Shown here: piece by piece, positions 1 through 34,106 of the stretch | How the letters are laid out: the number at the start of each line of letters is the position of its first letter | Position numbering within the stretch: position 1 is the first letter of the stretch | Origin: Verrucomicrobiota bacterium | Lineage (GTDB): Bacteria > Verrucomicrobiota > Verrucomicrobiia > Limisphaerales > JACRJY01 | Assembly (NCBI GenBank): GCA_016235585.1 | Contig: JACRJY010000023.1 | Span: 30,560 to 94,559 of the forward strand | Direction of reading: 5' to 3' | Length of the DNA: 64,000 nucleotides | Position numbers and translations under genes: made by a program | The notes under the pieces: model-generated | Told to the model about the DNA's origin: nothing | The model's database searches: none | Seen by the model: only the letters and a program-made list of their open reading frames with translations

Positions 1-2776
1 CGCCTTCGAGTTGATGACACTGCGCGCAGGTCTTGGTGAAGATGGCGTGGCCGCTGGCGGAATTCCCCTTGAGCGCGAGGATGGATTTGTATTCTTGATA
101 AACCTTCATCCGGTCGCCGCCGGTGAGGTTCTTGAACAGCTCCTCCGCCTTGGCCGCGACGGTTTTGTCGCGGTGCTTCAAGAGCTGGTTGCGCCGCGTG
201 GTGTCAATGGTCGTCGGCGCAATCGCGCCCGCCTCGATGGCAGCGAGCAGCGCCTTCACGCCCGCCGGCTGCGCGAGCAGCGACGCCAGCGCGGTCTCGC
301 GCACGGGCGGGGTGAGGCTTTTCCAGCGCACGGCGTCGAGCAGGAATCGCGGCGCGTCGAAGCCGGGCAGCAGGGCGAGCGCCTTCATGGCGGCGGTTTG
401 AATCTCCGTCGGCTGCTGCGGATTGAGCAGGCTCTGGAGCGGCTGGCCCGCCGTGGCAAAATCGGAGAAGGCGAGCAAGCCGATGGCCGCCTGCCGCGCG
501 GGCAGGGTTTGCCTGCCGTCGGTGGCAAGCTGCACGGCGCTCTTGGTGAGCTGTGCGAGGCCGTCGCGCGCCTCCGCGTTGCTCTCGGCGAGTTTTTGCA
601 GCGAGAGCTTGCGCGGGCGCAGCGCCTCGCCGAGTCCGGTGACGGCGGCGGATTTCGCGGCGTAATCGAGCGACTTGGCGGAAGCAAGTTTCGCGAGCAA
701 CGGCGGCAAAGTCTCCGGCGGCTGGCCCGCGCCGACGACGCGGCACGTTTCGGCGAGGAGTTGGGAGAGTCCGCCCGTTTCTGTTCGTTCGCCCGCTTTC
801 CCCTCACCCTGGCCCTCTCCCCTGGGGAGAGGGGACAGCGAATCGCGCGCGGCGACGTTCGATTTCGCGCTGGAATTATCCCGCGCTGCCGGTGCTTTCT
901 CCCTCTCCCCCGGGGAGAGGGCCGGGGTGAGGGGAAAACGCGCCTGCGACAAAACCGCGTCGAGAAAATCCCCGGCACGCTTGCCCACGGAACTCAACGA
1001 GGCGGCGCGCGTCCACTTGTCGCCCGCGTCGCGCACGGCGATGCGGGCGAGCAAATTCACCACCTCGGTGTCGCCGAGTTCGCCAAGCGTGAGCGCGGCT
1101 TGGACACGGACGCGGGCGTCGTTGTCCTTGGCAAGAAATTTGACCTTGGCCGCGAAGTCAGCAGATTTATTGAGACGCGGCTCGGCAAGTTGCAGCGCGT
1201 TCTCGCGCACGCCGGAATGCTTGTCCGCGAGCGCGGTGAAGACCGTGGCGTCATCCAGCCCGCCGAGGTTTTCCATCAGCCGCAGCGCAAGCACGCGGGC
1301 TTGGGCGGAATTGCCAGACCAGGCAATTGTTTTCAAAATGGGGAGCGACGCCTTGTCCGCGCGGTCGAGCAACAAGCGGAAGGCCGTTTCGCGCCACCAG
1401 ACTTTTGGGTTCTCCAGTTCTGCGACGAGTTGCTTGGTGCTGGCCTTGCCCAAATCAAACTTTTGCCTTTTACCTTTTTCCTTCTGACTTGCCGCCGTCA
1501 GGCGGTAGATGCGCCCCTGGTTGCGGCCCGAAACGAAGTCCAGTCTGTCGCGCATCTCGGCGGGCACATACTGCGGATGGTCAATGAACTTGCGATACAT
1601 GGACGCGACGTAGAGCGCACCGTCGGGGGCGTTGGCGGCGAACACGGGCCGGAACCAACTGTCCGCCGTGACCAGCACCTCGGTGCCGGGACGCGGGTGC
1701 GCGCCCTTGAGCATCGCGCCATTCGGCGAAATCACCTGCCGCTGCACGAGCGACTGCGCCGGTTCGCACGTGAAGCCATTGCCCGCAAACTCCGGCGGCA
1801 GCGCGTCGCCGTCGTAGATGCGGATGCCGCACGACGAGGTGAAGGTGCCCGCGTGCGGCGTGTGCAGCAGGCCGGGGTGCATCGAGGCGGTGGTCTGGTC
1901 GCGCGTGAGCGGATAGACGAAGCCGAGCTTGTCCGAGGCCGCCACGTCGGTGACGGTTTCGCTGAAGGCGAGGTTGGGGTTGCGCCGTAGGTAGCGCGGC
2001 GGAATCGCAATCATCTGGAGCGGATGGCGGTTGTCCACGGTGAACTTGCGCCCGAAGCTGTCGAAGCACTGGCCGAACTGCGCGACGCCCGCGACGACCT
2101 CGAACTCCAGCGTGTCGGGCCGGAAGCGCGTGTCGTTCTTCGTGAACTCGACGGCCTTGCGCTCCGGATGGTCGGGGCACGTCACCTTGCCGCCAGTCAG
2201 CCCGCTCGTGAGGTAAATCCAGCCGTCCATGCCAAGCGTCGGATGCGCGACGCGGATTTGCGTGGTCTTGCCCATTTCAAACCCGGTCAGCAAAACTTTC
2301 CGCACGTCGGCCTTGCCGTCGCCGTCGGTGTCCTTCAGATAAAAAATTTCCGGCGCGCAGGTGACGATGATTCCGCCGCGCCAGCACATGAGTCCGTTTG
2401 GATACGTGAGGCCGGTGGCGAACTCCGTGCGCTTTTCGTAAGCCCCGTCGCCATCGGTGTCCTCCAGCATCGCGATGATGCCGAGCGGTGTGCCGTCCTT
2501 CGCGCCTTCGGGATAGCCGCGATTTTCCGCGACGAAGAGGCGGCCGCGCTCATCCCATGCGAGCGCGACGGGGTCGCCGGTGAGCGGTTCGGCGGCGGCC
2601 AGCTCGACCCGCAGGCCCGGCTCGGTGCGCATCGCGGCGAGCGCCTGCGCGGGCGAGAGCGGCTTCTCGGCGGCGGTGAGCGCGGCGAGGTCGGGCGGCA
2701 GCGGCGCGGACTTGGATTGCGCGTGCGTGTCGAGGGCGAGCGCGAGGACGAGAACGATTGGGACGAAGCGCGTCAT
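1..2776 (-). CDS. PVC-type membrane-bound dehydrogenase domain / HEAT-repeat / cytochrome c (CxxCH) heme-binding protein; 3' end runs off the window
   Basis: Absent from the ORF track because it has no stop inside the window. Manual minus-strand translation from the ATG at 2776 is open all the way to position 1, and it is the only minus frame with no listed ORFs here. Landmarks: MTRFVPIVLVLALALDTHAQ (signal peptide), WDERGRLFVAENRGYPEG, EDTDGDG / KDTDGDGKAD, HEAT-like DARVRVQAALTLGELGD, ending at the edge in FTKTCAQCHQLEG (CxxCH). The architecture matches the Pirellula/Verrucomicrobium-type dehydrogenase plus heme-binding domain families. Confidence 0.8.
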   Translation of the reverse strand, partial: MTRFVPIVLVLALALDTHAQSKSAPLPPDLAALTAAEKPLSPAQALAAMRTEPGLRVELAAAEPLTGDPVALAWDERGRLFVAENRGYPEGAKDGTPLGIIAMLEDTDGDGAYEKRTEFATGLTYPNGLMCWRGGIIVTCAPEIFYLKDTDGDGKADVRKVLLTGFEMGKTTQIRVAHPTLGMDGWIYLTSGLTGGKVTCPDHPERKAVEFTKNDTRFRPDTLEFEVVAGVAQFGQCFDSFGRKFTVDNRHPLQMIAIPPRYLRRNPNLAFSETVTDVAASDKLGFVYPLTRDQTTASMHPGLLHTPHAGTFTSSCGIRIYDGDALPPEFAGNGFTCEPAQSLVQRQVISPNGAMLKGAHPRPGTEVLVTADSWFRPVFAANAPDGALYVASMYRKFIDHPQYVPAEMRDRLDFVSGRNQGRIYRLTAASQKEKGKRQKFDLGKASTKQLVAELENPKVWWRETAFRLLLDRADKASLPILKTIAWSGNSAQARVLALRLMENLGGLDDATVFTALADKHSGVRENALQLAEPRLNKSADFAAKVKFLAKDNDARVRVQAALTLGELGDTEVVNLLARIAVRDAGDKWTRAASLSSVGKRAGDFLDAVLSQARFPLTPALSPGEREKAPAARDNSSAKSNVAARDSLSPLPRGEGQGEGKAGERTETGGLSQLLAETCRVVGAGQPPETLPPLLAKLASAKSLDYAAKSAAVTGLGEALRPRKLSLQKLAESNAEARDGLAQLTKSAVQLATDGRQTLPARQAAIGLLAFSDFATAGQPLQSLLNPQQPTEIQTAAMKALALLPGFDAPRFLLDAVRWKSLTPPVRETALASLLAQPAGVKALLAAIEAGAIAPTTIDTTRRNQLLKHRDKTVAAKAEELFKNLTGGDRMKVYQEYKSILALKGNSASGHAIFTKTCAQCHQLEG
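797..938. repeat. 142-bp inverted-repeat (MITE/REP-like) element lying inside a CDS
   Basis: Arm 1 (797-836) is tttcccctcaccctggccctctcccctggggagagggga. The reverse complement of arm 2 (898-938) is ttttcccctcaccccggccctctccccgggggagagggaga, which is nearly identical. Each arm holds its own palindrome (ctctcccc/ggggagag). The spacer is 61 bp. Confidence 0.8.
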
Positions 2777-5633: not shown

Positions 5634-6503
5634 ATGAAGCCCGTCTTCGAGAAAACGCCGCAGCGCCAGTGGGAGTCCTTCCACTGCGAGGTCGTGCGCG
5701 GTTCGAGCTACAACGCGACGTGGCATTTTCATCCCGAATACCAGCTTACGCTCGTGCTCAAGAGCCACGGCCACCGGCTCGTGGGCGACAAAATCACGCC
5801 GTTGCAGGCCGGCGATCTCGTGCTGCTCGGCTCGAACCTGCCGCACGTCTGGCACCAGGAGGAGGCGCACGGGCAGTCTTCGCGCGCGGTTCACGCGATC
5901 ATTGTGCGGTTTCTGGAGACATTTTTGGGCGGCGACTTTCTGGAAATCCCCGAAGCCGAGCCGGTGCGCCGATTGTTAAAGCGCGCCGCGCGCGGGCTGC
6001 ACATCACCGGCAGGACGCGTGAAGTCGTCGCGGACAAAATGCAGCGGCTCGCCGCGAGCCAAGGTTTGGAGCGCGTCGCCCAACTGCTCTCCATTCTGGA
6101 GACGCTGGCCCGCTCGAAGGAAGTCCAGCCCATCGCGAGCGCCGGTTTCGTGCCGAACCTTTCCCGTGACGATCAGGGGCGGATGGAGCGCGTCTGCAAC
6201 TTCATCCACACCCGGCTGGGCGAACCGATTGACCGCGAGCAGGTCGCCGCCGAGGCGCACTTGAGCATCGGCGCGTTCAGCCGGTTCTTCAAGCTGCGGA
6301 CGGGCAAGACACTGCCGGAATACGTGAACGAACTGCGCGTGGGCCGCGCCTGCCGTCTGCTCGCCGAGGCGGACACGAAGGTGACAGACGTGGCGATGGA
6401 GTGCGGTTTTCAGAACCTGGCGAACTTCAACCGCCGCTTCCGCGAAATCACCAAAGTGACGCCGCGCGAATACCGGCGGCAGTTCAAGCAGAACGCGGGC
6501 TGA
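5634..6503 (+). CDS. AraC family transcriptional regulator (cupin sensor + HTH)
   Basis: The ORF opens at 5580; I chose the start at MKPVFEK (5634). The N-terminal half is cupin-like (WHFHPEYQLTLV). The C-terminal half is an AraC HTH (LSIGAFSRFFKLRTGKTLPEYVNELRVGRACRLL ... GFQNLANFNRRFREITKVTPREYR). Confidence 0.85.
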   Translation: MKPVFEKTPQRQWESFHCEVVRGSSYNATWHFHPEYQLTLVLKSHGHRLVGDKITPLQAGDLVLLGSNLPHVWHQEEAHGQSSRAVHAIIVRFLETFLGGDFLEIPEAEPVRRLLKRAARGLHITGRTREVVADKMQRLAASQGLERVAQLLSILETLARSKEVQPIASAGFVPNLSRDDQGRMERVCNFIHTRLGEPIDREQVAAEAHLSIGAFSRFFKLRTGKTLPEYVNELRVGRACRLLAEADTKVTDVAMECGFQNLANFNRRFREITKVTPREYRRQFKQNAG

Positions 6504-6539
6504 AGTTTCGCGGAATCAACGGGGCTCGAGCCTGGCGTT

Positions 6540-7910
6540 TCACTTGGCTTTGTTTTTCTTCTTTTTCTTGGCGCCGGCGGCGGGCGCGTCCTCCTTGCCG
6601 TCGCGCAAATGTGCGGGGCGGGCGTCCTTGAACTGGTCGAGCGCAGCTTGAAGCCGCTTCGCGGCGGCGGCGGCTTCACCGGTGAGCGCCGCGACCTTGA
6701 GCGGACTCTTTTCGCCCAGATCCGCACGAAGGTCGAAGAAGTCCCCGGTGCGGTAGAGTTTGAAATCGCGGTTGAAAGCGCATTCACGAACCACTTTGTC
6801 CGCTCCCTGGCGCGGCGAATACCACGAGTAAATCCATTCGCGCGGACTGCCCTTTTCGCCGCGGAGCTGCGGGAGGAAACTGCGGCCATCCATCTTCAAA
6901 TCCGCCGGCAGCTTCACGCCCGCCGCGTCGCAGATGGTCGGCAAAATATCCGTGCTGTCCACAAGGTCGGCGCTGACCTTGCCGTCCGTAATTTTGCCCG
7001 GCCAGCTCGCGATGAGCGGCACGCGCATCCCAAAGGAAGTCGTCGCCCCTTTGCCGCCGATGACCACCTTGTCGCCCATCATCGAGCGCGTGCCCTTGCC
7101 CGTGCCGTTGTCGCCGAGAAAAATAAGGAGCGTGCTCTCGCGGAGGCCAAGCTGGTCGAGGCGCGCGACGAGTTTGCCGATGAGCTTGTCCATGTATTCC
7201 ACCATGTCGCCGAAGTTCGCGTCGGCCTTGTTCACGTTTTCGCCTTTGGCTTTCGGATCCCAGGTCTTGCTGTCCGGCGTGGGCTGATAGGGCGAGTGAG
7301 TGAGCATCATCGGGTAGTAGAGGAAGAACGGCTTGTCCTTCTGCCGCGCCACAAACTTCAGCGCGTAGTCGTTCACGAGGTCGGGGCCGTATTCGCCGTT
7401 AGTGTAGTCCTTCTCGACGCCGTTGATTTCGAGGCCGGCATTGGCGTAGCGCGGCGGGCGGCGCGTGTGCTGCCAGAGACAATGCTCGTCAAAACCATAC
7501 TTCTTCGGCAGCTCCGGATCCTGCCCCAGTTGCCATTTGCCGGTGATGCACGTCGCATAGCCAGCCTGCTTGAACAAGTTGCCGAACGTGACGGCCTTCG
7601 GATCCATGTTCCCGAAGTTGATATAGTTTCTCACGTTGTATTGCCCGGTCATCAACTGCACTCGCGTCGGCGTGCAGAGCGGCTGCACATAGCAGTGCTC
7701 GAACCGCGCGCCCGCCGCCGCGAGTTTGTCCAGCACGGGCGTCTTGTAGGAGGTGCCGCCATTCGCGCCGATGGTTTCATAACCGAGGTCGTCGGCCATG
7801 ATGACGATGACATTGGGCTGGCGCGCCGCGGCGGCAAGCTGGCCGCAAAGAACGCACAACAGCGCAAAGACGAATACCAGTCGGGCGGGCCAGTTGGATT
7901 TTTTGCTCAT
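6540..7910 (-). CDS. sulfatase (formylglycine-dependent, arylsulfatase A family), secreted
   Basis: 456 aa. Signal peptide [21 protein letters not shown]. Also [11 protein letters not shown] and the CxPxR maturation motif [12 protein letters not shown]. The C-terminus ends in [12 protein letters not shown]. Confidence 0.9.
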
Positions 7911-9656: not shown

Positions 9657-9772
9657 ATTCCGAAAACCGAAGCGCGAAGGCCGAAGGAATGCCGAAGCCC
9701 GAAGCCCGAAATCCGCGCCTTCGGGTTTCGGGCTTCGGTTTTGGTTCGGAATTCGGAATTCGGAATTCGATG
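9657..9772. repeat. ccgaa/ttcgg-rich imperfect long palindrome followed by GGAATTC heptamer x3
   Basis: The inner perfect stem is gaagcccgaaa ... tttcgggcttc. The outer arms are attccgaaaaccgaagc / gcttcggttttggttcggaat. At 9748-9768, ggaattc occurs three times in tandem, creating three EcoRI sites. Confidence 0.75.
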
Positions 9773-9779
9773 TTTCAAC

Positions 9780-11357
9780 TCATTCCGCCTTTCCCTTCTT
9801 CCGCTTCTCGTTGCGCTCGCGCTTCGGCGTGCCGGTCTCCAGTTTTTTCTGGAGTTCGCCCAGCTTCTCCGCCTCCTGCGCCTTGAGCCAGGTCTCGTAG
9901 CCCTTGGTGCGCCCGCCGACATATTTCAGCGCCTCGAAATCATCACCTTTGCCGAGCGCGCGCGGGTCGCCCTCCTCCTTCAAAATGTTCATCATCTGGT
10001 AACGCAGGTTTTCCACGGTCTCCTTGTGCGCAAGGTCGTGGGCGAGATTGTTGACGCACTCCGGGTCGCGGCGCAGGTCATACAGTTCATCGGGCAGGCG
10101 TTTGCCGAAGCACAGCTCGTAAAAATGCCCGCCCAGCAGCTTGATGACTTCCTTCGTCGGGCCGGGGTCGCAGTTGCCGAAATCCGTTTCGGGATTTCCT
10201 GCCGGCCAGCGCTCCGGGTGGAAGTTGTGGACGTAGAGAAAATCCTTCGTGCGAATCGCGCGCACGGGATAGCCGAGATCGTTCGGGCGGCCAATGTCGT
10301 GCCGCTCCTTGCCCGCGAGCATCACGTCGCGGTTCTCGATGAAGCCGGATTTTTCCGAGCGCAGGATGTTCACGAGGCTTTTGCCGGTCATCTGCGCGTG
10401 CGGCTTGAGGCCGGCCAGTTCCAGGTAGGTCGGCGCAAAGTCGCGCACGTTCACAAAATCCTCGACCACGCGGCCCGGCTTGATTACCCTGCCCCACCGC
10501 ATCGCCAGCGGCAGGTGAAAGGCGTCCTCGTGAATCTGCCCCTTCACAAAGGGGAACGGCATCCCGTGGTCGGACGTGACGATGATCAGCGTGTTCTCCA
10601 GTTCGCCGGAATCTTCGAGCAGCTTCAGCGCGCGGCCAATCTGCGCGTCGCCCCACTCGACCTCGACGGAGTAGTCCAGCAGATCGCGCCGGACGATTTC
10701 CGTGTCGGGGAAAAACTTCGGCACCTTCACGTCCTCCAGCTTCTTGCCGAGGCGCACGCCGGAGTTCCACTCGTAGGCCCGGTGCGGTTCGAAAAGACCC
10801 ATCCAGAACGAGAACGGCCTGCTCTTGTCGCGCTGCTTGAGGAACTCGCCGAAGTTGCCGGGATAATCGTTGCCATTGATGCCGGTGGCGATGGGCTGCT
10901 GCTTGAGCGCGTCAAAACTCGGCCCCGCCGGGTTGCGCGTGAACTTGGCCAGCGTCTTGAAATCGCCCGGCCCCCAGCCTTTGCCGGTGAGGCCGATGGT
11001 GTAGCCGGATTTCTCCAGCAGATCGGGATACACCGCGAAGCCCGCCGGAAAATAGCCGCCGTGCGAGACGGCCTCGTTGAGCTGCCAGGTGTTGCGCCCG
11101 GTGAGGATGCTCGCGCGGCACGGGCTGCACTTGGGGTTCGACGTGAAGGCGTTCTTGAACAGCACGCCCTCGCGCGCGACGCGGTCGAAGTTCGGCGTCT
11201 TGATCCACGTGCAGCCGTAGGCGCCCGCGTGCGTGCTGCCGTTCCAGTCGTCGAAGATGATGAAGAGGACGTTGGGGCGGGCCGCCGCAAGCGCGGGCGT
11301 GCCGGTGAAAACAGCCAGCACGACAAGCGCGGCCAGCAGGTGGTCAATCAGTTTCAT
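9780..11357 (-). CDS. sulfatase, secreted
   Basis: The ORF opens at 11396; the likely start is MKLIDHLLAALVVLAVFTG at 11357. Also VLFIIFDDW and CxPxR KCSPCRASILTGR. Lys-rich tail KRERNEKRKKGKAE. Confidence 0.9.
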   Translation of the reverse strand: MKLIDHLLAALVVLAVFTGTPALAAARPNVLFIIFDDWNGSTHAGAYGCTWIKTPNFDRVAREGVLFKNAFTSNPKCSPCRASILTGRNTWQLNEAVSHGGYFPAGFAVYPDLLEKSGYTIGLTGKGWGPGDFKTLAKFTRNPAGPSFDALKQQPIATGINGNDYPGNFGEFLKQRDKSRPFSFWMGLFEPHRAYEWNSGVRLGKKLEDVKVPKFFPDTEIVRRDLLDYSVEVEWGDAQIGRALKLLEDSGELENTLIIVTSDHGMPFPFVKGQIHEDAFHLPLAMRWGRVIKPGRVVEDFVNVRDFAPTYLELAGLKPHAQMTGKSLVNILRSEKSGFIENRDVMLAGKERHDIGRPNDLGYPVRAIRTKDFLYVHNFHPERWPAGNPETDFGNCDPGPTKEVIKLLGGHFYELCFGKRLPDELYDLRRDPECVNNLAHDLAHKETVENLRYQMMNILKEEGDPRALGKGDDFEALKYVGGRTKGYETWLKAQEAEKLGELQKKLETGTPKRERNEKRKKGKAE

Positions 11358-11402
11358 GGTGGGAGGTTGGATTGGAAAACAGCGCGGCTTCTTCATTTCC
11401 GC

Positions 11403-28240: not shown

Positions 28241-29470
28241 TCAGCGGCTGTTCCATGTCGTGTTCGGCTTCTTCCAAAGAATGCGCGCGGCGAACACGGC
28301 GTTGTCCGATCCGTATTTCATGCACTGCGTGTAGTCGGCGTAGTTCGGCGGATTGGTCTGCATCCATTCCGCGTCGGTGACCCAGGTTTCGTTTTCATTC
28401 ACCTCGGTGACGCCGAAGTTGCCGAGCTTCGCGCCACGTTGCGGCATCAGCTCGCGCTCGGTGCTGCGAATCACGTGCAGTTTCTTGGCGTCAACTTGAG
28501 CGATGAACAACGGCGCGCGGTTCCGGGGAATATGATCATTGTTCGCGCCCCGCCGCGTGTAGCAGAGGAACAGCGCATCGTCGTGCGTGACCCAGTGCGC
28601 CTGCGTGTTGTAGCTGCCGAGGTCGGTGCCGTCGTCCCACGTCCACGATTTGAGCGGGCCGTAGTTCAAGCCGTCGGCGCTGGTGGTCACGAAGGCCTGT
28701 TGATCGTGGCGGATCGTGAGGTAGTAGCGCCCTTTGAACCGGGCGAGCGACGGCTCGTGCAGCCCGCGCTCCACGTCCACGCGCAGCTCGTTCCCGATTT
28801 CCTTCACCGACAGCCGCCGCCCGTCGAAGCCGCAGCGCAGCACCACCACGCGCGAGGTCGTCTCGCCCTTGGGGGTGAAGTAAATCGGCAGCAGAATGTC
28901 GCCATCCGGGAGATCAACGCGTTGCACGCTGCCTGCGCCGGCGTTGTGAAAACGGTTCGTGTCCGGCACCGCCAGCGTCTCCCACGCCGTCCAGTTACGC
29001 GCGCCAGGATCGTAGATGGAGAACACCGTCTCCCGCGCGCGCACGCGCATGACCTTGTTGTCCTGATAACGCACGTCGTGCCCGATGCCGAGCAGCTTGC
29101 CCGATTTCGCGTGCCACTTGGGCCAGAAGTCCGACGGCGTGACCGTGACGCGCCCCGGCTCCTCACGCGGCCCCAGCGTGCGCGCGTGCTCCACCGGCCC
29201 CGACCATGTCTTGCCGAAGTCGTCGGAGCGCATCTCGTTGAGCGGATCGAAAATGTCGCTGCCCACGAGCGCGGCCTTGTTCATCGTCAACACGATCTTC
29301 GGCACCGCGCCGGGAATCGCGCCCGCGCGCGGATGCACCCAGCAGGATTTTTTGTCGAAGCCGGTGCTGATCGTGTCGAGCTTGAGATCGAAGCCGGGTG
29401 GCTCGGCGGCGTGAAGCAACGCAACTGAACCAAACAACAGGGAGGCAAGGAGGAGTCGGGGTGTGTTCAT
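28241..29470 (-). CDS. secreted sialidase-superfamily (BNR/Asp-box) beta-propeller protein, paralog 1
   Basis: The ORF opens at 30181, but that upstream stretch is Arg-rich shadow. The likely start is MNTPRLLLASLLFGSVALLHA at 29470 (in frame, 409 aa). Asp-box SDDFGKTW, a second degenerate box SADGLNY, and the conserved block YTRRGANNDHIPRNRAPLFIAQV. Confidence 0.7.
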   Translation of the reverse strand: MNTPRLLLASLLFGSVALLHAAEPPGFDLKLDTISTGFDKKSCWVHPRAGAIPGAVPKIVLTMNKAALVGSDIFDPLNEMRSDDFGKTWSGPVEHARTLGPREEPGRVTVTPSDFWPKWHAKSGKLLGIGHDVRYQDNKVMRVRARETVFSIYDPGARNWTAWETLAVPDTNRFHNAGAGSVQRVDLPDGDILLPIYFTPKGETTSRVVVLRCGFDGRRLSVKEIGNELRVDVERGLHEPSLARFKGRYYLTIRHDQQAFVTTSADGLNYGPLKSWTWDDGTDLGSYNTQAHWVTHDDALFLCYTRRGANNDHIPRNRAPLFIAQVDAKKLHVIRSTERELMPQRGAKLGNFGVTEVNENETWVTDAEWMQTNPPNYADYTQCMKYGSDNAVFAARILWKKPNTTWNSR

Positions 29471-29499
29471 CAGTTCGTGGAGTGCAGTTTTGATTTCCG

Positions 29500-30747
29500 T
29501 CACCTCACCGGCGCGGAGGTCGCAGCGCCGGCCGGCCTGAGCTTGTTCGGCTTCGACCAAAGAACGCGGGCGACGAAGGTGGCGCCCTCGGCGCCGCGTT
29601 GCTTCGAGTCCTTCATGAACATGCCTTCGGAAACGGTGACCCACGATTCGCGTTCGCTGATCGCGCACGCGCCGAAGTTGCCCATCTCCGCGCCGCGCTC
29701 GGGCACGACGACCTTTTCGGTGGCGCGCATCACGCGCAGTGTCGTCGGGCTTACCTGCGCCATGAACAGCGGTGCGCGATGGCGCACGATGTGGTCGTTG
29801 TTCGCGCCGCGCCGGGTGTAGATGAGGAAGAGGCCGTCGCTGTGCGCGAGCCAATGCTGCTGCGTGTTGTAGCTGCCGAGTTCCGCGCCGTCGTCGAAAA
29901 GCCACGGCTGCGGCGCGGCGAACTGCAATCCATCCTCGCTTACGCTGACGTAGCCGCGCACATCGTTGCGCAGCGTGAGAAAATAGCGGCCGTGAAACGC
30001 GATCAGCGACGGCTCGTAAAATCCACGCGCCACGTCGAGCCGCAACACGTTTCCATTGCGCACGAAGGTGAGTTTCGCACCATCGAACCGGCACTCGGAG
30101 ACGGTGGTGCTGTAGCGATCCTTGGCGCTCCTGCCGATGTAGAGCGGCACGAGCAGTGTGCCGTCGGGCTTCACGAGCCACTGCGCGCAGGCGTTGCGGG
30201 CGAAATTGAACTGCTCGTCATCGGGCAGTTCCAGCACCTGCCACGGCGTCCAGCGTTCCGTCTTTGGATCGAAGATCGCATAGACTGTCTGATGCGCGCG
30301 CTTCACGTCGTCAAGTTGCTTCCCTTGCGGGCTGTAGCGGACCTGGCAACCGATAGCGAGGAGCTTGCCCGTCGGCGCGTGCCAGCCGGGCGTGACATCC
30401 GCCACGCTGATCGTCACGCCATCCGATTGCTGCCGCCAATCCAGTTCCGGCGGCAAAGTCGGCCCCGTCCACGGCGCCGTCGGCGACTTGCGCATCATCA
30501 CATGGAGGCCGGAGTAGTAGTCTGATATTTTGAGATGCTTCTGAATCGTCATCACGACGGTTGGCTCGCCGCCGGTGCGCGAAGGAATGGCGGCCGCGCG
30601 CGGATGAAACCACAGGAACTTCCCGTCATCGTGTTTCATCACCGTCTCCAGCTTGACGGTGAACTCGACCGGGGCGGGTGCGGCGGCAGCAAGGACGGCC
30701 AACGGAGCCAGCAGCAGCGCGGTGAGGGTGACGGTCGTGATTCTCAT
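29500..30747 (-). CDS. secreted sialidase-superfamily beta-propeller protein, paralog 2
   Basis: The likely start is MRITTVTLTALLLAPLAVLAAA at 30747. It is collinear with paralog 1 (GSYNTQQHWLAHSDGLFLIYTRRGANNDHIVRHRAPLFMAQV), but its Asp-boxes are degenerate (SEDGLQF). Confidence 0.7.
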   Translation of the reverse strand: MRITTVTLTALLLAPLAVLAAAAPAPVEFTVKLETVMKHDDGKFLWFHPRAAAIPSRTGGEPTVVMTIQKHLKISDYYSGLHVMMRKSPTAPWTGPTLPPELDWRQQSDGVTISVADVTPGWHAPTGKLLAIGCQVRYSPQGKQLDDVKRAHQTVYAIFDPKTERWTPWQVLELPDDEQFNFARNACAQWLVKPDGTLLVPLYIGRSAKDRYSTTVSECRFDGAKLTFVRNGNVLRLDVARGFYEPSLIAFHGRYFLTLRNDVRGYVSVSEDGLQFAAPQPWLFDDGAELGSYNTQQHWLAHSDGLFLIYTRRGANNDHIVRHRAPLFMAQVSPTTLRVMRATEKVVVPERGAEMGNFGACAISERESWVTVSEGMFMKDSKQRGAEGATFVARVLWSKPNKLRPAGAATSAPVR

Positions 30748-30889
30748 TCTCGGAACAAGCGTCAATTTCGTGGCATTTGGTTTCAGGACGGACGGGCCGG
30801 ACAATGACAGAAGCCTCCGCCCAAGGCCAGCCGCAGTTCACGTCACGAATGAATTTCCTTTTCCCGCGCCCGCGCTACAGTCTCCAAAA

Positions 30890-31633
30890 ATGTCCGGCGC
30901 ACTCGTCGTCAACGAAATCTATTTGAGCCTGCAAGGGGAAAGCACCTTGGCCGGAATGCCGTGCGTCTTCGTGCGGCTGACGGCGTGCAACCTCCGCTGC
31001 TCCTACTGCGACACGGCGTATGCCTTCACCGAGGGGAAGAAAATGCCTCTCGACGAAATTCTCGCCGAAGTGCGACGGCTGGCAGTGCCGTTCTCCAACC
31101 TCCAATCTCCAATCTCCAATCTCAAACTGCCCCTGGTCGAACTCACCGGCGGCGAGCCGCTGCTCCAGCCGAATTCGCTGCCACTGATGAAATCGCTCTG
31201 CGACGACGGCTTCACCGTGCTGCTCGAAACCAGCGGGGCACTGGACATCGCGCCCGTGGACCCGCGCGTGCGGCGCATCATGGATTTGAAATGCCCCAGC
31301 AGCGGCGAGTGCGAGCGCAACCGTTTGGAAAACCTCGCGCACCTCAAGGCCACGGATGAAATCAAGTTCGTCATCGGCACACGCGAGGACTACGACTGGG
31401 CGAAGCAGATGATTTCCACGCACCATCTCGCCGCCCTCTGTCCCCTGCTCTTCTCGTGGGTCGCCCCGCTCGCGCCGCACCAGCAGGACAAGTCGCTCAA
31501 GAAAGTTCCCGCCGGGCTGACGCCCATCTCCCGCCTCGAACTCGTCGAGCAAATCATCGCCGACGCGCTGCCCGTGCGCTTCCAGTTGCAGATGCACAAA
31601 GTCATCTGGCCATCGGAGCAAAGAGGAGTTTGA
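30890..31633 (+). CDS. queE: 7-carboxy-7-deazaguanine synthase (radical SAM)
   Basis: Start MSGALVVNEIYLSLQGEST at 30890. The radical-SAM cluster motif is CNLRCSYCDT. Also LVELTGGEPLLQ. Contains an atypical insert, FSNLQSPISNLKLP. Confidence 0.85.
   Translation: MSGALVVNEIYLSLQGESTLAGMPCVFVRLTACNLRCSYCDTAYAFTEGKKMPLDEILAEVRRLAVPFSNLQSPISNLKLPLVELTGGEPLLQPNSLPLMKSLCDDGFTVLLETSGALDIAPVDPRVRRIMDLKCPSSGECERNRLENLAHLKATDEIKFVIGTREDYDWAKQMISTHHLAALCPLLFSWVAPLAPHQQDKSLKKVPAGLTPISRLELVEQIIADALPVRFQLQMHKVIWPSEQRGV
31093..31127. repeat. heptanucleotide tandem repeat CTCCAAT x5 inside queE
   Basis: The tract is ctccaac ctccaat ctccaat ctccaat ctcaaac. It encodes SNLQSPISNLK. Confidence 0.9.
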
Positions 31634-31700
31634 GCCACAGATGAAACACAGATTGAACACCGATTTCATTCCGTGTTTCATCCGTGTTCAATCCGTGGCT
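31633..31700. repeat. CCACAGATGAA-family hairpin in the queE-aminotransferase spacer
   Basis: Arms agccacagatgaaacacagattgaacac and gtgtttcatccgtgttcaatccgtggct (imperfect), with loop cgatttcattcc. Confidence 0.8.
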
Positions 31701-31705
31701 GAAAA

Positions 31706-33037
31706 ATGACAACCAAACAAACCCTCGACCTGCTTCGCGCCCACGAGTCGCGCAACGTGCTCTTCCTGGAGCCGGACGGCTCATGGCCCATCGTCTGGGA
31801 GCGGGCGCGCGGCGTTCACGTCTGGGACGCCGAGGGGCGCAAGTATCTCGACCTCACGGCGGCCTTCGGCGTCGCCGCCGCCGGGCACGCAAACCCATGC
31901 GTCGTCCGCGCCGGCCAGCGGCAGATGGCCACGCTGCTCCACGCCATGGGCGACGTGCATCCACACGCGCTCAAGGCGCGGCTCGCGCGCGAATTAAGCC
32001 GAATTACGTTCGAGCGATGGGGGCGAGCGAGGGCAAAAGGCAAACGGCAAACGGCAAAAGTTGCGGCGGCAACGGGCAAAGTAATCTTCTGCAACTCCGG
32101 CTTCGAGGCAGTCGAGGCTGCGCTCAAGACCGCCGTGCTCGCCACCGGCAGGCGCGGCGTCATCGCCTTCGAGGGCGCGTATCACGGGCTTGGCTACGGC
32201 GCGCTCAACGCCACACACCGCGAGCATTTCCGCGGCCCGTTCCGCTCGCAGCTCGGTGAGTTTGGACATTTCGTCAGGTTTCCCGGCGAGCGGAGTGCTC
32301 TCAAAGAAGTGGCGCAGAACATTACCAAGCTTTTCCGCCGCCACAAAACCGGCGCGATTCTCGTCGAGCCAATCCAGGCGCGTGGTGGCTGCAACATTCT
32401 GCCGACGGGATTCCTCCCGCTGCTCCGCAAACTATGCGACCGGCACGGCGCGCTGCTGATTCTCGACGAGATTTACACCGGCTTTGGCCGCACGGGAAAA
32501 TGGTTCGCCTGCGAGCACAGCGGCGTGGTTCCCGATTTAATCTGCCTTGGCAAGGCGCTCACTGGCGGTTTCCCGCTCTCGGCCTGCGTGGGTCGCGCCG
32601 ACGTGATGGACGCCGCGTGGCCGCCGTCCTCTGGCGAGGCGATTCACACCAGCACCTTCCTCGGCCACCCCGTCGGCTGTGCGATGGCCCTGGCGCAGAT
32701 GGAGGAAATCAAGCGGTTGAAACTGTGCGCGCGCAGCGCGCGGCTGGGAAAGGTTCTGCTGGCCAAGCTTCGTTCAATTCAAAATTCAAAACTCAAAACT
32801 CAAAACTCCGCTCGCGCACTCGGCCTCATGGCCGGCCTCGAACTCCGCCGCGCCGACGGCTCGCCCGCGAGCGCCGAGACGATGCACGTCATCAAGGCCA
32901 TGCTCCATCGCGGCTTCATCCTGCTGCCGGAGGGCGCGCACGGCAACGTCATCAGCTTCACGCCGCCGCTGACCATCACGGAGGCGCAACTGCGCGCCAC
33001 GGTCAAAGCACTCGCCGAGGTTTTGGCCACAGATTGA
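31706..33037 (+). CDS. class III (PLP-dependent) aminotransferase, acetylornithine/GABA aminotransferase-like
   Basis: 443 aa. Contains NSGFEAVEAALK, LILDEIYTGFGRTGKWFACEH and the PLP-lysine context CLGKALTGGFPLSA. Confidence 0.85.
   Translation: MTTKQTLDLLRAHESRNVLFLEPDGSWPIVWERARGVHVWDAEGRKYLDLTAAFGVAAAGHANPCVVRAGQRQMATLLHAMGDVHPHALKARLARELSRITFERWGRARAKGKRQTAKVAAATGKVIFCNSGFEAVEAALKTAVLATGRRGVIAFEGAYHGLGYGALNATHREHFRGPFRSQLGEFGHFVRFPGERSALKEVAQNITKLFRRHKTGAILVEPIQARGGCNILPTGFLPLLRKLCDRHGALLILDEIYTGFGRTGKWFACEHSGVVPDLICLGKALTGGFPLSACVGRADVMDAAWPPSSGEAIHTSTFLGHPVGCAMALAQMEEIKRLKLCARSARLGKVLLAKLRSIQNSKLKTQNSARALGLMAGLELRRADGSPASAETMHVIKAMLHRGFILLPEGAHGNVISFTPPLTITEAQLRATVKALAEVLATD
32032..32059. 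repeat. heptanucleotide tandem repeat GGCAAAN x4 inside the aminotransferase gene
   Basis: The tract is ggcaaaa ggcaaac ggcaaac ggcaaaa. It encodes AKGKRQTAK. Confidence 0.85.
32774..32807. repeat. heptanucleotide tandem repeat CAAAAYT (~4.9 copies) inside the aminotransferase gene
   Basis: The tract is tcaatt caaaatt caaaact caaaact caaaact. It encodes IQNSKLKTQNS. Confidence 0.9.
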
Positions 33038-33241: not shown

Positions 33242-33254
33242 TGCTTTTCTTCCC

Positions 33255-34106
33255 ATGACGCTCACGGAAATGCGACAGATACTCGGCACGCGCGGCATCC
33301 AGCTCACCAAGTCGCTCGGCCAGAATTTCCTCCATGACGGCAACCAGCTTCGTCGCATCGTCGCGGCGGCGGAACTGACCAAGGCCGACAAAGTGCTCGA
33401 AATCGGCCCCGGCCTCGGCCCGCTCACGGAACTGCTGCTGGCGCAGGCCGGCGAAGTGCTGGCGGTGGAGATGGACAGACGGTTGGTGGAGTTTCTGCGC
33501 GAGCACTTCAATTCAAAACTCAAAACTCAAAACTCAAACCTTCAACTGCACCACGCCGACGCGCTCAAATTCCTCCGCGACGAACCGCGCGACTGGTCGG
33601 ACTGGAAGCTCGTCGCCAACCTCCCCTACTCCGTCGCCTCGCCGATTCTTGTCGAACTGGCACAGGCCGAGCACAGCCCGAAACTCATCGTCGTCACGCT
33701 CCAGCTCGAAGTCGCCCGCCGCTTGATGGCCGGGGCCGACACCGACGACTACGGCGTGCTCACGCTGCTTGTGCAGCTCCGCTATCAGCCGCGCGAATGG
33801 TTCAAGATACCGGCGACGTGCTTCTTCCCCGCACCGGACGTGGAATCCGCGTGCGTCACGCTGGAACGGCGCGCGCAGCCGCTGTTGCGCCGCGCGCAGG
33901 AGACCGTGTTCACCCGGCTGGTGAAGCTCGCTTTCTCGCAACGGCGCAAGATGATGCTCAAGCTGCTCAAGCAACACTGGCCGGTGGAAAAACTGGCGGG
34001 CGCGTTTGCGGAGCTGAAGATTTCTCCGCAGGAGCGCGCGGAGAAACTCACGCTCGAACAATTCGCCCGGCTCACCCGACTGCTGAACACATCAAGTGAA
34101 ACCTGA
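33255..34106 (+). CDS. rsmA: 16S rRNA (adenine1518/1519-N6)-dimethyltransferase
   Basis: Start MTLTEMRQILGTRGIQLTKSLGQNFLHD at 33255. SAM motif VLEIGPGLGPLT, and ANLPYSVASPIL. Confidence 0.9.
   Translation: MTLTEMRQILGTRGIQLTKSLGQNFLHDGNQLRRIVAAAELTKADKVLEIGPGLGPLTELLLAQAGEVLAVEMDRRLVEFLREHFNSKLKTQNSNLQLHHADALKFLRDEPRDWSDWKLVANLPYSVASPILVELAQAEHSPKLIVVTLQLEVARRLMAGADTDDYGVLTLLVQLRYQPREWFKIPATCFFPAPDVESACVTLERRAQPLLRRAQETVFTRLVKLAFSQRRKMMLKLLKQHWPVEKLAGAFAELKISPQERAEKLTLEQFARLTRLLNTSSET
33508..33547. repeat. heptanucleotide tandem repeat CAAAACT (~5.5 copies) inside rsmA
   Basis: The tract is tcaatt caaaact caaaact caaaact caaacct tcaact. It encodes FNSKLKTQNSNLQL. Confidence 0.9.

Follow-up and report, generated by a model that had tools for sequence, protein, structure and literature searches.

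In many bacteria, heptanucleotides form the most frequent class of long simple repeat, and polymerase slippage in a 7-nt register has been put forward to explain this (Mrazek et al. 2007, as summarized in PMC4692102 and PMC4679880). Multicopy elements of Geobacter metallireducens, found both within and between genes, consist of tandem heptamers, four of GGACCGG or five of MTYCTGA (PMC2700814). The G-rich GGGAATC and GGGGAYT repeats of Xanthomonas and Nostoc show a preference for about four units, include some inverted pairs and avoid coding regions (PMC4692102), and the TAACTGA repeats of Beggiatoaceae and cyanobacteria, present in 2-6 copies with one fixed unit per lineage, are mostly intergenic, their orientation within open reading frames (ORFs) being limited by stop codons in all three frames (PMC4679880). 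Here we describe a heptamer tract in a 64,000-nt stretch of DNA (hereafter the window) from a Verrucomicrobiota bacterium of the order Limisphaerales (GenBank assembly GCA_016235585.1, contig JACRJY010000023.1, positions 30,560 to 94,559), where it lies in frame inside queE, a tRNA-modification gene assigned to the radical SAM enzyme 7-carboxy-7-deazaguanine synthase. A search of the accessible literature returned no paper tying Verrucomicrobia or Pedosphaera to heptamer repeats. The repeat class is known, while order-wide arrays in core enzymes that are locked in position and length and variable in unit are, as far as could be checked, undescribed.

The tract (31093-31127) consists of five 7-nt copies, read directly from the letters (CTCCAAC, CTCCAAT three times and CTCAAAC), the last of which overlaps the first base of the Leu codon in LPLVEL. 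An initial annotation of this DNA had given its sequence, coordinates and in-frame peptide (SNLQSPISNLK), all of which were exact on re-reading. Tandem Repeats Finder (TRF) placed it at 31092-31123, with period 7, 4.6 copies, 92% matches and a score of 57, and the top TRF scores in the window belonged to the tract, its 14-nt reading (58) and one period-18 array. When we applied a lag test with a threshold of at least 22 of 24 self-matches, three period-7 arrays were detected in the window and none at periods 4-6 and 8-12, and 200 order-1 Markov resamplings of the window (approximately dinucleotide-preserving) gave no array at any period. With at least three head-to-tail 7-nt copies, far above chance, the tract is thus a heptanucleotide simple sequence repeat (SSR). 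Its three-unit 21-mer had no second match on either strand of the window at up to 3 mismatches, nor any match in 100 dinucleotide-preserving shuffles of the window. Three consecutive CTCCAAT copies were seen at a single place in the window, and 91 loci yielded no further instance; there was no complementary partner array either, and the CTCCAAT unit was private to the window among the species surveyed.

As RNA, the tract appeared unstructured (z = 0.09), and an Rfam scan of the window returned no family match; RNA structure and a known RNA family were thereby ruled out for it. It contains no run of three G or C on either strand, and thus cannot supply the four G-tracts of at least 3 G that define a G-quadruplex. 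It also lacks the marks of miniature inverted-repeat transposable elements (MITEs) or repetitive extragenic palindromic (REP) elements, i.e., terminal inverted repeats or a stable hairpin, a target duplication and dispersed copies, given the same z value and the absence of a complementary partner or second copy in the window and the 91 loci.

The ORF that holds the tract (Table 1) matched the NCBIfam model TIGR04349 best (2e-78, 262.8 bits), and all of its top NCBIfam matches were QueE models. Pfam reported Radical_SAM (PF04055, 6.4e-10), and the solved QueE chains 6nhl (2e-12), 4njg (7e-9) and 5tgs (5e-6) matched as well. Near the N-terminus lies the CxxxCxxC motif (C33-x3-C37-x2-C40, CNLRCSYC), invariant in a 93-sequence alignment, and an AlphaFold2 (AF2) model reached a predicted local distance difference test (pLDDT) score of 95.7 and a predicted template modeling (pTM) score of 0.92. 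Judged by these matches and the model, the ORF is QueE. Its TIGR04349 score fell short of the curated cut-off of 300, probably because of clade-specific inserts, the tract included, as the protein has 247 aa against a profile of 210 positions. In the AF2 model, residues 54-69 form a helix, 70-81 a coil, in which the tract is placed, and 82-86 a strand, and the lowest internal confidence falls on block 71-80 (pLDDT 80). The segment from CxxC(D/N) to TGGEP measures 34 aa in 76 of ~135 QueE representatives (50% identity; e.g., AYAFYEGKEMTIDEILECVRAYRCKLVEVTGGEP) and 48 aa in the window's QueE, a clade surplus of 14 aa, 11 of which are the tract. In line with the initial annotation, the tract lies inside queE directly before the LVELTGGEP strand, where QueE proteins normally have a short turn, and the model places its ~4.6 units in what is predicted to be a permissive surface loop between helix 1 and strand 2.

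Among the 120 best protein homologues (77-85% identity), most were exactly 247 aa long and carried an 11-aa insert at the same place. The insert peptides varied (SNSKLKTQNSK, SNLKSQISNFK, SNPQSAIRNPQ, RNSALRTPHSA, SNSQPSTLNSQ), as expected from different heptamers read in three frames. At the DNA level, we compared 80 species-level genomes, nearly all of them metagenome-assembled genomes (MAGs) of Limisphaerales, an order of soil Verrucomicrobia; their loci are labelled L001 onward. In ~55-60 of the 80 species, the PF and LPLVEL codons are separated by 33 nt composed of 4-5 heptamer copies, and the queE reading frame is intact in all 80. The units in this slot were diverse (AACTCAA, AATTCAA, AACTCTC, AACCCTC, AATCCGC, AATCCGA, AACTCCG, CACTCCG, CACTCGT, AATCTCA, AACCATC and others), and the 40 species with the clearest arrays shared an identical register and the unit form C-N-M-A-A-Y-Y. 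The segment has the standard length in 62 species, and in these lag-7 identity was 0.76 in the slot versus 0.23-0.25 in the flanking 33 nt, while identity between species in the slot was 0.56. At the free position of the unit, A/C/G/T counts in successive units of the 40 arrays were nearly constant (12/4/14/10, 12/4/14/10, 11/4/15/10 and 11/4/14/11). Homogenization at the DNA level also takes in a synonymous site: where the units are of the AAT type, the Leu codon that follows the array is TTG, and where they are of the AAC type, it is CTG or CTT.

Read from these alignments, the queE slot units evolve in concert, each species with its own heptamer, and the tract is an inherited microsatellite of a core gene rather than a private insertion. 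This resembles the concerted evolution of minisatellites and ribosomal DNA, in that copies within an array are more alike than orthologues between species; unlike those systems, it concerns a 33-nt, frame-locked array in a bacterial enzyme gene. The initial annotation had taken the tract to be generated in this genome, which an orthologous, length-locked slot with species-specific units across an order contradicts. As the contrary case, it had named an insert conserved in sequence and length among distant QueE homologues with no repeat structure in the DNA; the alignments agree with this as to length and position, whereas the sequence is not conserved and the DNA repeat structure is kept. Since the peptides vary while period 7 is retained, what is conserved is position, length and DNA periodicity, not the peptide. 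Selection on the peptide for protein function (S-N-x-K/Q-x-x-I/T-x-N-x-K/Q), with the DNA periodicity incidental, would account for the conserved 11-aa length and for N and K/Q at fixed positions, but we give this explanation almost no credence: the inserts range from SNPQSAIRNPQ to KNSSLVTRHSS and FQCSVFSVQK with the DNA period kept, homogenization reaches the synonymous site, arrays behave identically in unrelated proteins and between genes, and the loop has the lowest confidence in the AF2 model.

Several species have no array in queE (8-aa loop), and others carry a form three units shorter or unrelated inserts. In a rough neighbor-joining tree, a basal grade held the array-free species, the species of the window and those whose units are odd (GGTCAGC, TTCAGTG, AGCTTTC); unit types were scattered over the tree, and slot distance correlated weakly with flank distance (rho 0.085).

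Two kinds of unusual queE loop were seen. At L022:10001-10792, L024:1741-2538 and L067:5691-6482, the loop carries in-frame palindromic MITE-like inserts with arms GACGTAAGGAGGCTC/GAGCCTCCTTACGTC, encoding ...ADVRRL...EPPYVGCY.... At L049:10001-10750 and L055:10001-10750, a 15-nt hairpin (tcccgcaaagcggga) interrupts the heptamer array of queE, yielding SNPQSSRKAGRTPK. In cyanobacteria, heptamer arrays can have small dispersed repeats within them, and the hairpin in these two loci resembles such repeats.

Changes of whole units were found in orthologous arrays, as befits an SSR. Over 358 nt, the only difference between loci L081 and L082, which come from two different samples, is the loss of one AATTTCA unit; the intact allele comes from a JGI sample, and the -7-nt allele, known from a single assembled contig (ENA ERZ27248494), frameshifts queE and corresponds to an 82-aa truncated QueE (P0319) in a 90% cluster. 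In addition, relative to the L034 type, the slot of L029 is shortened by exactly 3 units (21 nt). One-unit slippage is therefore real but rare.

Such slippage could in principle make the tract a phase-variation (contingency) switch of queE. The repeat is non-triplet and lies within coding sequence, the natural -7-nt allele truncates the enzyme at 82 aa, and queuosine is dispensable in many bacteria. We nevertheless consider a switch very unlikely, as the tract has only ~4.6 units, the frame is intact in the 80 species, neither the nine metagenome copies nor the full-length members of the ten 90% clusters surveyed depart from the standard slot length, and the other disrupted gene, the aminotransferase of L005, has a 1-nt indel beside its array and no unit slip. 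The contingency loci of Haemophilus influenzae likewise combine a non-triplet (tetra- or heptanucleotide) coding repeat with a frame shift upon unit change, but they are long, highly polymorphic and located in surface or restriction-modification genes, whereas the present arrays are short, nearly invariant in length and located in housekeeping genes (PMC2651432, PMC8262952). In place of frequent reversible copy-number polymorphism, we found one off-frame allele, and in place of surface, virulence or restriction-modification hosts, we found queE, a class-III aminotransferase gene and rsmA. Invariant copy number and intact frames thus argue that the arrays are not hypervariable contingency tracts.

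Two further irregularities were noted. At L005:11860-11960, in a long-contig MAG, the aminotransferase gene is split by the 1-nt indel directly after its (AATTCAA)4.7 array; array slippage was rejected as the cause, and the indel may reflect a misassembly at the A-runs or be a genuine frameshift beside an array. In P0127, there is an apparent compensated frameshift around the queE slot.

To place the tract in its genomic setting, we took a census of the 80 loci and the window together (1.33 Mb). TRF arrays (≥3 copies, ≥85% matches) numbered 135 at period 7 versus 19 at all other periods from 1 to 24 together, and the lag test gave 84 arrays at period 7 versus 1-2 each at the other periods between 4 and 12. 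Using a per-array frame test and per-locus models, we assigned 129 period-7 arrays to coding sequence and 47 to sequence outside it; with queE removed as the ascertainment locus, the counts were 74 and 47. Although most arrays by count lie inside genes, their density is ~4-fold higher between genes (74 in ~1.15 Mb coding versus 47 in ~0.17 Mb non-coding), as the coding fraction is ~0.86. The proposal of the initial annotation, a general process that makes heptamer arrays within genes, can thus be retained as a period-7 process, and its restriction to genes dropped. Like the long simple sequence repeats (LSSRs) of prokaryotes (Mrazek, Guo and Shah 2007, as summarized in PMC4692102 and PMC4679880), these arrays consist of tandem 7-nt units, show a period-7 excess and include one-unit indel alleles. 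LSSRs with non-triplet units were described as rare in coding sequence, whereas most arrays here are in frame and in housekeeping genes; unlike LSSRs, they also occupy orthologous slots across an order, with fixed copy number and species-specific units.

The arrays share a distinctive composition, the coding strand holding A 0.375, C 0.30, G 0.116 and T 0.21 where the genome is even. They are free of stops in all three frames of the coding strand, and 76 of 160 would hold stops if inverted. This G-poor coding strand (0.116), on which no G-quadruplex is possible, sets them apart from the Xanthomonas and Nostoc repeats, although both recur at corresponding intergenic sites of related species while varying in sequence (PMC4692102).

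We next consider how units change. Within one 90% cluster, proteins are 89-95% identical outside the slot, yet carry SNSKLKTQNSK, SNSQLSTLNSQ, SNLKSQISNSK or RNSSLITHHSS inside it. Loci L018 and L034 are ~97.5% identical in queE and ~96-97% identical over several kb, except for a ~65-nt island where one has (AACTCAA)4 and the other (AATCCGC)4, with 6 synonymous differences in the next 18 nt. Among 17 close pairs in all, divergence in those with replaced arrays was 27.7% in the adjacent 47 nt versus 9.9% further off (2.8-fold); in those with conserved arrays, it was 10.6% versus 8.1% (1.3-fold), in a small sample of non-independent pairs. The divergence beside replaced arrays fits short recombination imports or error-prone rewriting. 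By a rough argument, neutral homogenization would let units diverge at about the neutral per-site rate. The pair L005 and L037 (3 unit changes, 7% flank divergence) agrees with this, while L018 and L034 (4 unit changes, 2.5-3% divergence) do not, import being more likely in their case. These last two loci also differ by ~1.4-kb and ~0.8-kb indels (L018:1072, 5212; L034 ~5967-6800), the ~0.8-kb indel lying directly after queE, and L018 is without the usual aminotransferase neighbor. Units at different slots of one genome were identical in 5.5% of cases versus 2.3%, a marginal excess (p ~0.06), and genome-wide homogenization between slots by ectopic conversion is thus not claimed.

The neighboring genes supplied further slots for comparison. 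The N-terminal array of the aminotransferase is an insertion, with a gap opposite it in 6wop and 4uox, and among orthologues 8 species leave this slot empty ('WGKKTGK'), many have an array there, and others have palindromic inserts. The C-terminal array aligns without gaps to 'IQQATGDVVTD' of 6wop, and so stands in for a native segment of equal length; of 68 orthologues, nearly all encode this slot with heptamers, whose units vary. In rsmA, the slot is empty, array-bearing or occupied by other small inserts. Array size is constant across slots, whereas the net gain in length is 0, ~+5 or +11 to +14 aa depending on the slot.

These patterns bear on the possibility that no single ancestral array existed, and that ~33-nt mobile or break-repair cassettes were inserted repeatedly and independently into hot-spot loops. 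The aminotransferase N-terminal and rsmA slots, which are empty, array-bearing or palindromic and MITE-like according to species, are what such insertion would produce, as are the palindromic inserts (L022, L024, L067) and the hairpin inside the array (L049, L055) in the queE loop, the unrelated units and lengths in sister species (GGTCAGC, TTCAGTG, AGCTTTC) and the replacement of arrays along with their flanks. Still, independent insertion appears improbable: register and length are identical in 40 species despite unlike units, the C-terminal aminotransferase array brings no change in length relative to solved homologues, and the slot-dependent gain implies that there is no constant insert. 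Nor were terminal inverted repeats, target duplications or dispersed identical copies found, and different slots of a genome share their units only marginally.

Taken together, these results lead us to favor, with a probability of about 0.55, a lineage-wide heptanucleotide microsatellite process that is held in check by reading frame and loop length, keeps each array uniform and occasionally swaps short tracts. The tract would accordingly be one member of a population of heptanucleotide microsatellites in Limisphaerales (Pedosphaera-like Verrucomicrobia). We propose that replication or repair favoring 7-nt misalignment makes and re-homogenizes arrays throughout the genome, and that the arrays surviving in genes are those that are in frame, stop-free in three frames and hydrophilic (with the A/C-rich strand coding) in tolerant loops. 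Purifying selection on frame and loop length would then fix the copy number and, with the copy number so locked, homogenization would have to be mostly length-neutral, by misaligned conversion within arrays or by rare pairs of -7 and +7 changes. Whole arrays may now and then be exchanged between lineages via short recombination tracts, and the encoded peptide would be a by-product with no function of its own.

Several observations weigh against this microsatellite process. Each ±7 step is a frameshift, so that the high purity of many arrays under frame lock needs a length-neutral conversion that is assumed rather than observed. Slippage itself left few traces, with one -7 allele among the members of ten 90% clusters, no difference in slot length among their full-length members (most have 247 aa; longer ones differ in called length only, and shorter ones are fragments) and no slippage allele of the AACTCAA array, for which 9 of 9 metagenome contigs had the standard copy number. 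Arrays in genes have 4.35 ± 0.43 copies and those outside genes, where no frame applies, 4.34 ± 0.46, and perfect lag-7 runs show a local peak at 23-26 and stop at 26 (33 nt), with two longer; simple slippage does not predict a sharp ~33-nt ceiling that is also seen outside genes. Moreover, the motif C-N-M-A-A-Y-Y is matched more closely by arrays in unrelated genes than by stop-free permutations of the same letters (6.13 vs 5.40 ± 0.07; 0 of 1000), which rejects stop avoidance alone as the cause of the unit order and hints at a sequence-specific process or constraint. Finally, almost all species of a large clade have kept an array, with unit types scattered over the tree, which selection for the array could explain equally well.

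Several of these points would be expected if the arrays were selected cis-elements, i.e., ~33-nt periodic, A/C-rich, unstructured DNA or mRNA platforms (for a multimeric binder, Rho- or S1-type loading, or pausing), in which case core genes would hold an overlapping nucleic-acid code in tolerant loops. This would explain the constant size of ~4.4 units in and outside genes, a unit motif shared beyond composition and stop avoidance, the retention of the same slots across an order, and the G-poor, unstructured nature of the tract as RNA. It would also suit the intergenic AAATCGT unit, kept across species 5' of start codons or in a hairpin ending at the aminotransferase start, and the preference for four or five heptamers published for Xanthomonas and Geobacter (PMC4692102, PMC2700814). 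We regard it as unlikely all the same, for units vary freely between species and between slots of one genome, so that one sequence-specific reader would not suit them all; CTCCAAT is confined to the tract within the window and absent from the 91 loci; several species manage with an 8-aa loop, the array three units shorter or unrelated inserts; and Rfam gave no match. Similarly doubtful is the broader idea of an active Limisphaerales-specific system that writes, re-homogenizes or exchanges ~33-nt cassettes at fixed sites, or of cassettes kept as nucleic-acid signals related to (AAATCGT)4.

As in Geobacter, four to five tandem heptamers recur in and between genes, but the Geobacter families have one genome-wide consensus unit, dispersed copies found by BLAST and a GC-rich sequence (PMC2700814), while here units vary by slot and species, the window unit is unique and the arrays are A/C-rich. 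Many copies of one consensus unit per genome were not found in the window or the 91 loci, where units differ between slots. Position-locked, unit-variable arrays in conserved enzymes are not described for the TAACTGA repeats or the short tandemly repeated repetitive (STRR) heptamers.

Non-triplet microsatellites, which are expected to be purged from essential coding sequence, here persist in frame in the same core-gene slots across an order with their units turning over in concert, providing a natural system for studying array homogenization under reading-frame lock. This bears on why long simple repeats of bacteria favor 7-nt units and about four copies, a question since 2007, and on the amount of arbitrary sequence that enzyme surface loops can accommodate. 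In practice, such tracts probably depress family-model scores (as for QueE and its curated cut-off), yield frameshift alleles that resemble pseudogenes in MAGs, and mark hot spots of short recombination. Were a cassette-writing system or a nucleic-acid signal to be true instead, housekeeping loops would hold an overlapping non-protein code, and the 'four to five heptamers' that recur in several phyla would have a mechanistic cause.

The features of the window are collected in Table 1. Both CAAAACT tracts mentioned in the initial annotation were recovered by TRF, in the aminotransferase C-terminal slot and in the RsmA loop.

Table 1. Heptamer arrays, their host genes and associated hairpins in the window (positions of the 64,000-nt stretch).
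Feature	Coordinates	Strand	Details
Heptamer tract in queE	31093..31127	+	11 codons 31094-31126 = S69-K79, SNLQSPISNLK
queE (7-carboxy-7-deazaguanine synthase, radical SAM)	30890..31633	+	247-aa ORF
Intergenic hairpin, queE stop to aminotransferase start	31634..31700	+	Period-11 arms; TRF 31636-31665, 31664-31697
Class-III aminotransferase gene	31706..33037	+	Two in-frame heptamer arrays; Pfam Aminotran_3 1.8e-95, PDB alignments
GGCAAAA x4.1, aminotransferase N-terminal slot	32032..32060	+	Peptide AKGKRQTAKV; TRF
TCAAAAC x4.3, aminotransferase C-terminal slot	32779..32808	+	Peptide IQNSKLKTQNS; TRF
rsmA/ksgA (16S rRNA dimethyladenosine transferase)	33252..34106	+	One array; Pfam RrnaAD 3e-53, PDB RsmA chains
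TCAAAAC x3.7, RsmA loop	33513..33538	+	Peptide NSKLKTQNS; TRF
CTTTTAC x3.4 (coding strand GTAAAAG), DUF7133/HEAT-repeat gene	1460..1483	-	In frame, peptide QKEKGKRQK; TRF, Pfam
Inverted heptamer array pair, (CCGAAGN)n then (TTCGGNN)n	9660..9775	.	Intergenic; TRF 9667-9710, 9720-9742, 9745-9769

The inverted pair of arrays lies directly 3' of a sulfatase gene (9780..11396, minus strand; Pfam Sulfatase), and looks like a terminator-type hairpin built of heptamer repeats. The hairpin between queE and the aminotransferase gene is predicted to be stable (-32.5 kcal/mol, z = -4.9), and ~25 related species have in its place an (ATTTACG)4-loop-(CGTAAAT)4 hairpin whose 3' arm reaches the GTG or ATG of the aminotransferase gene (e.g., L003:10745-10825, L005, L010, L016, L027, L029, L037, L066 and L075). 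The unit of these arms, even the variant third unit (CGAAAAT), is conserved across species, unlike the units of arrays in genes. The remaining species have no spacer between the two genes, or another hairpin. In the window, this spacer (31636-31700) contains a REP-like, hairpin-forming dispersed family, CCACAGATGAA(A/C)ACAGAT...ATCTGTGTTCATCTGTGG, members of which also lie just after queE in L012, L014, L020, L026, L030, L049, L067 and L076.

Arrays of (AAATCGT)3.5-4.6 were seen to precede, by 3-10 nt, the start codon (ATG) of a conserved gene whose product starts with MARP(N/T)N, at L013:15067-15097, L028:15446-15472, L031:14450-14481, L052:15126-15156, L058:14525-14548, L066:15248-15271 and L078:16566-16597. 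Some TAACTGA and STRR heptamers are similarly located directly upstream of starts (PMC4679880; for Calothrix, as cited in PMC4692102), as is (AAATCGT)4 here. Because one frame of AAATCGT contains TAA, this unit is barred from genes; AAATCGC, AAATCGG, AAATCCG and similar units found in genes look like stop-free relatives of it.

Palindromic inserts were also observed in the aminotransferase loop of many loci ('RRDELHES...SGTR', 'AANVSSR...LTSAATGK') and in the rsmA loop ('LTPALSPGERE...PLLGERAGVR'). Upstream of queE, two adjoining paralogous ORFs on the minus strand (28241-30804; 434 aa and ~400 aa of a 646-aa ORF) appear by eye to be of the BNR/sialidase type; the one run against Pfam gave no match.

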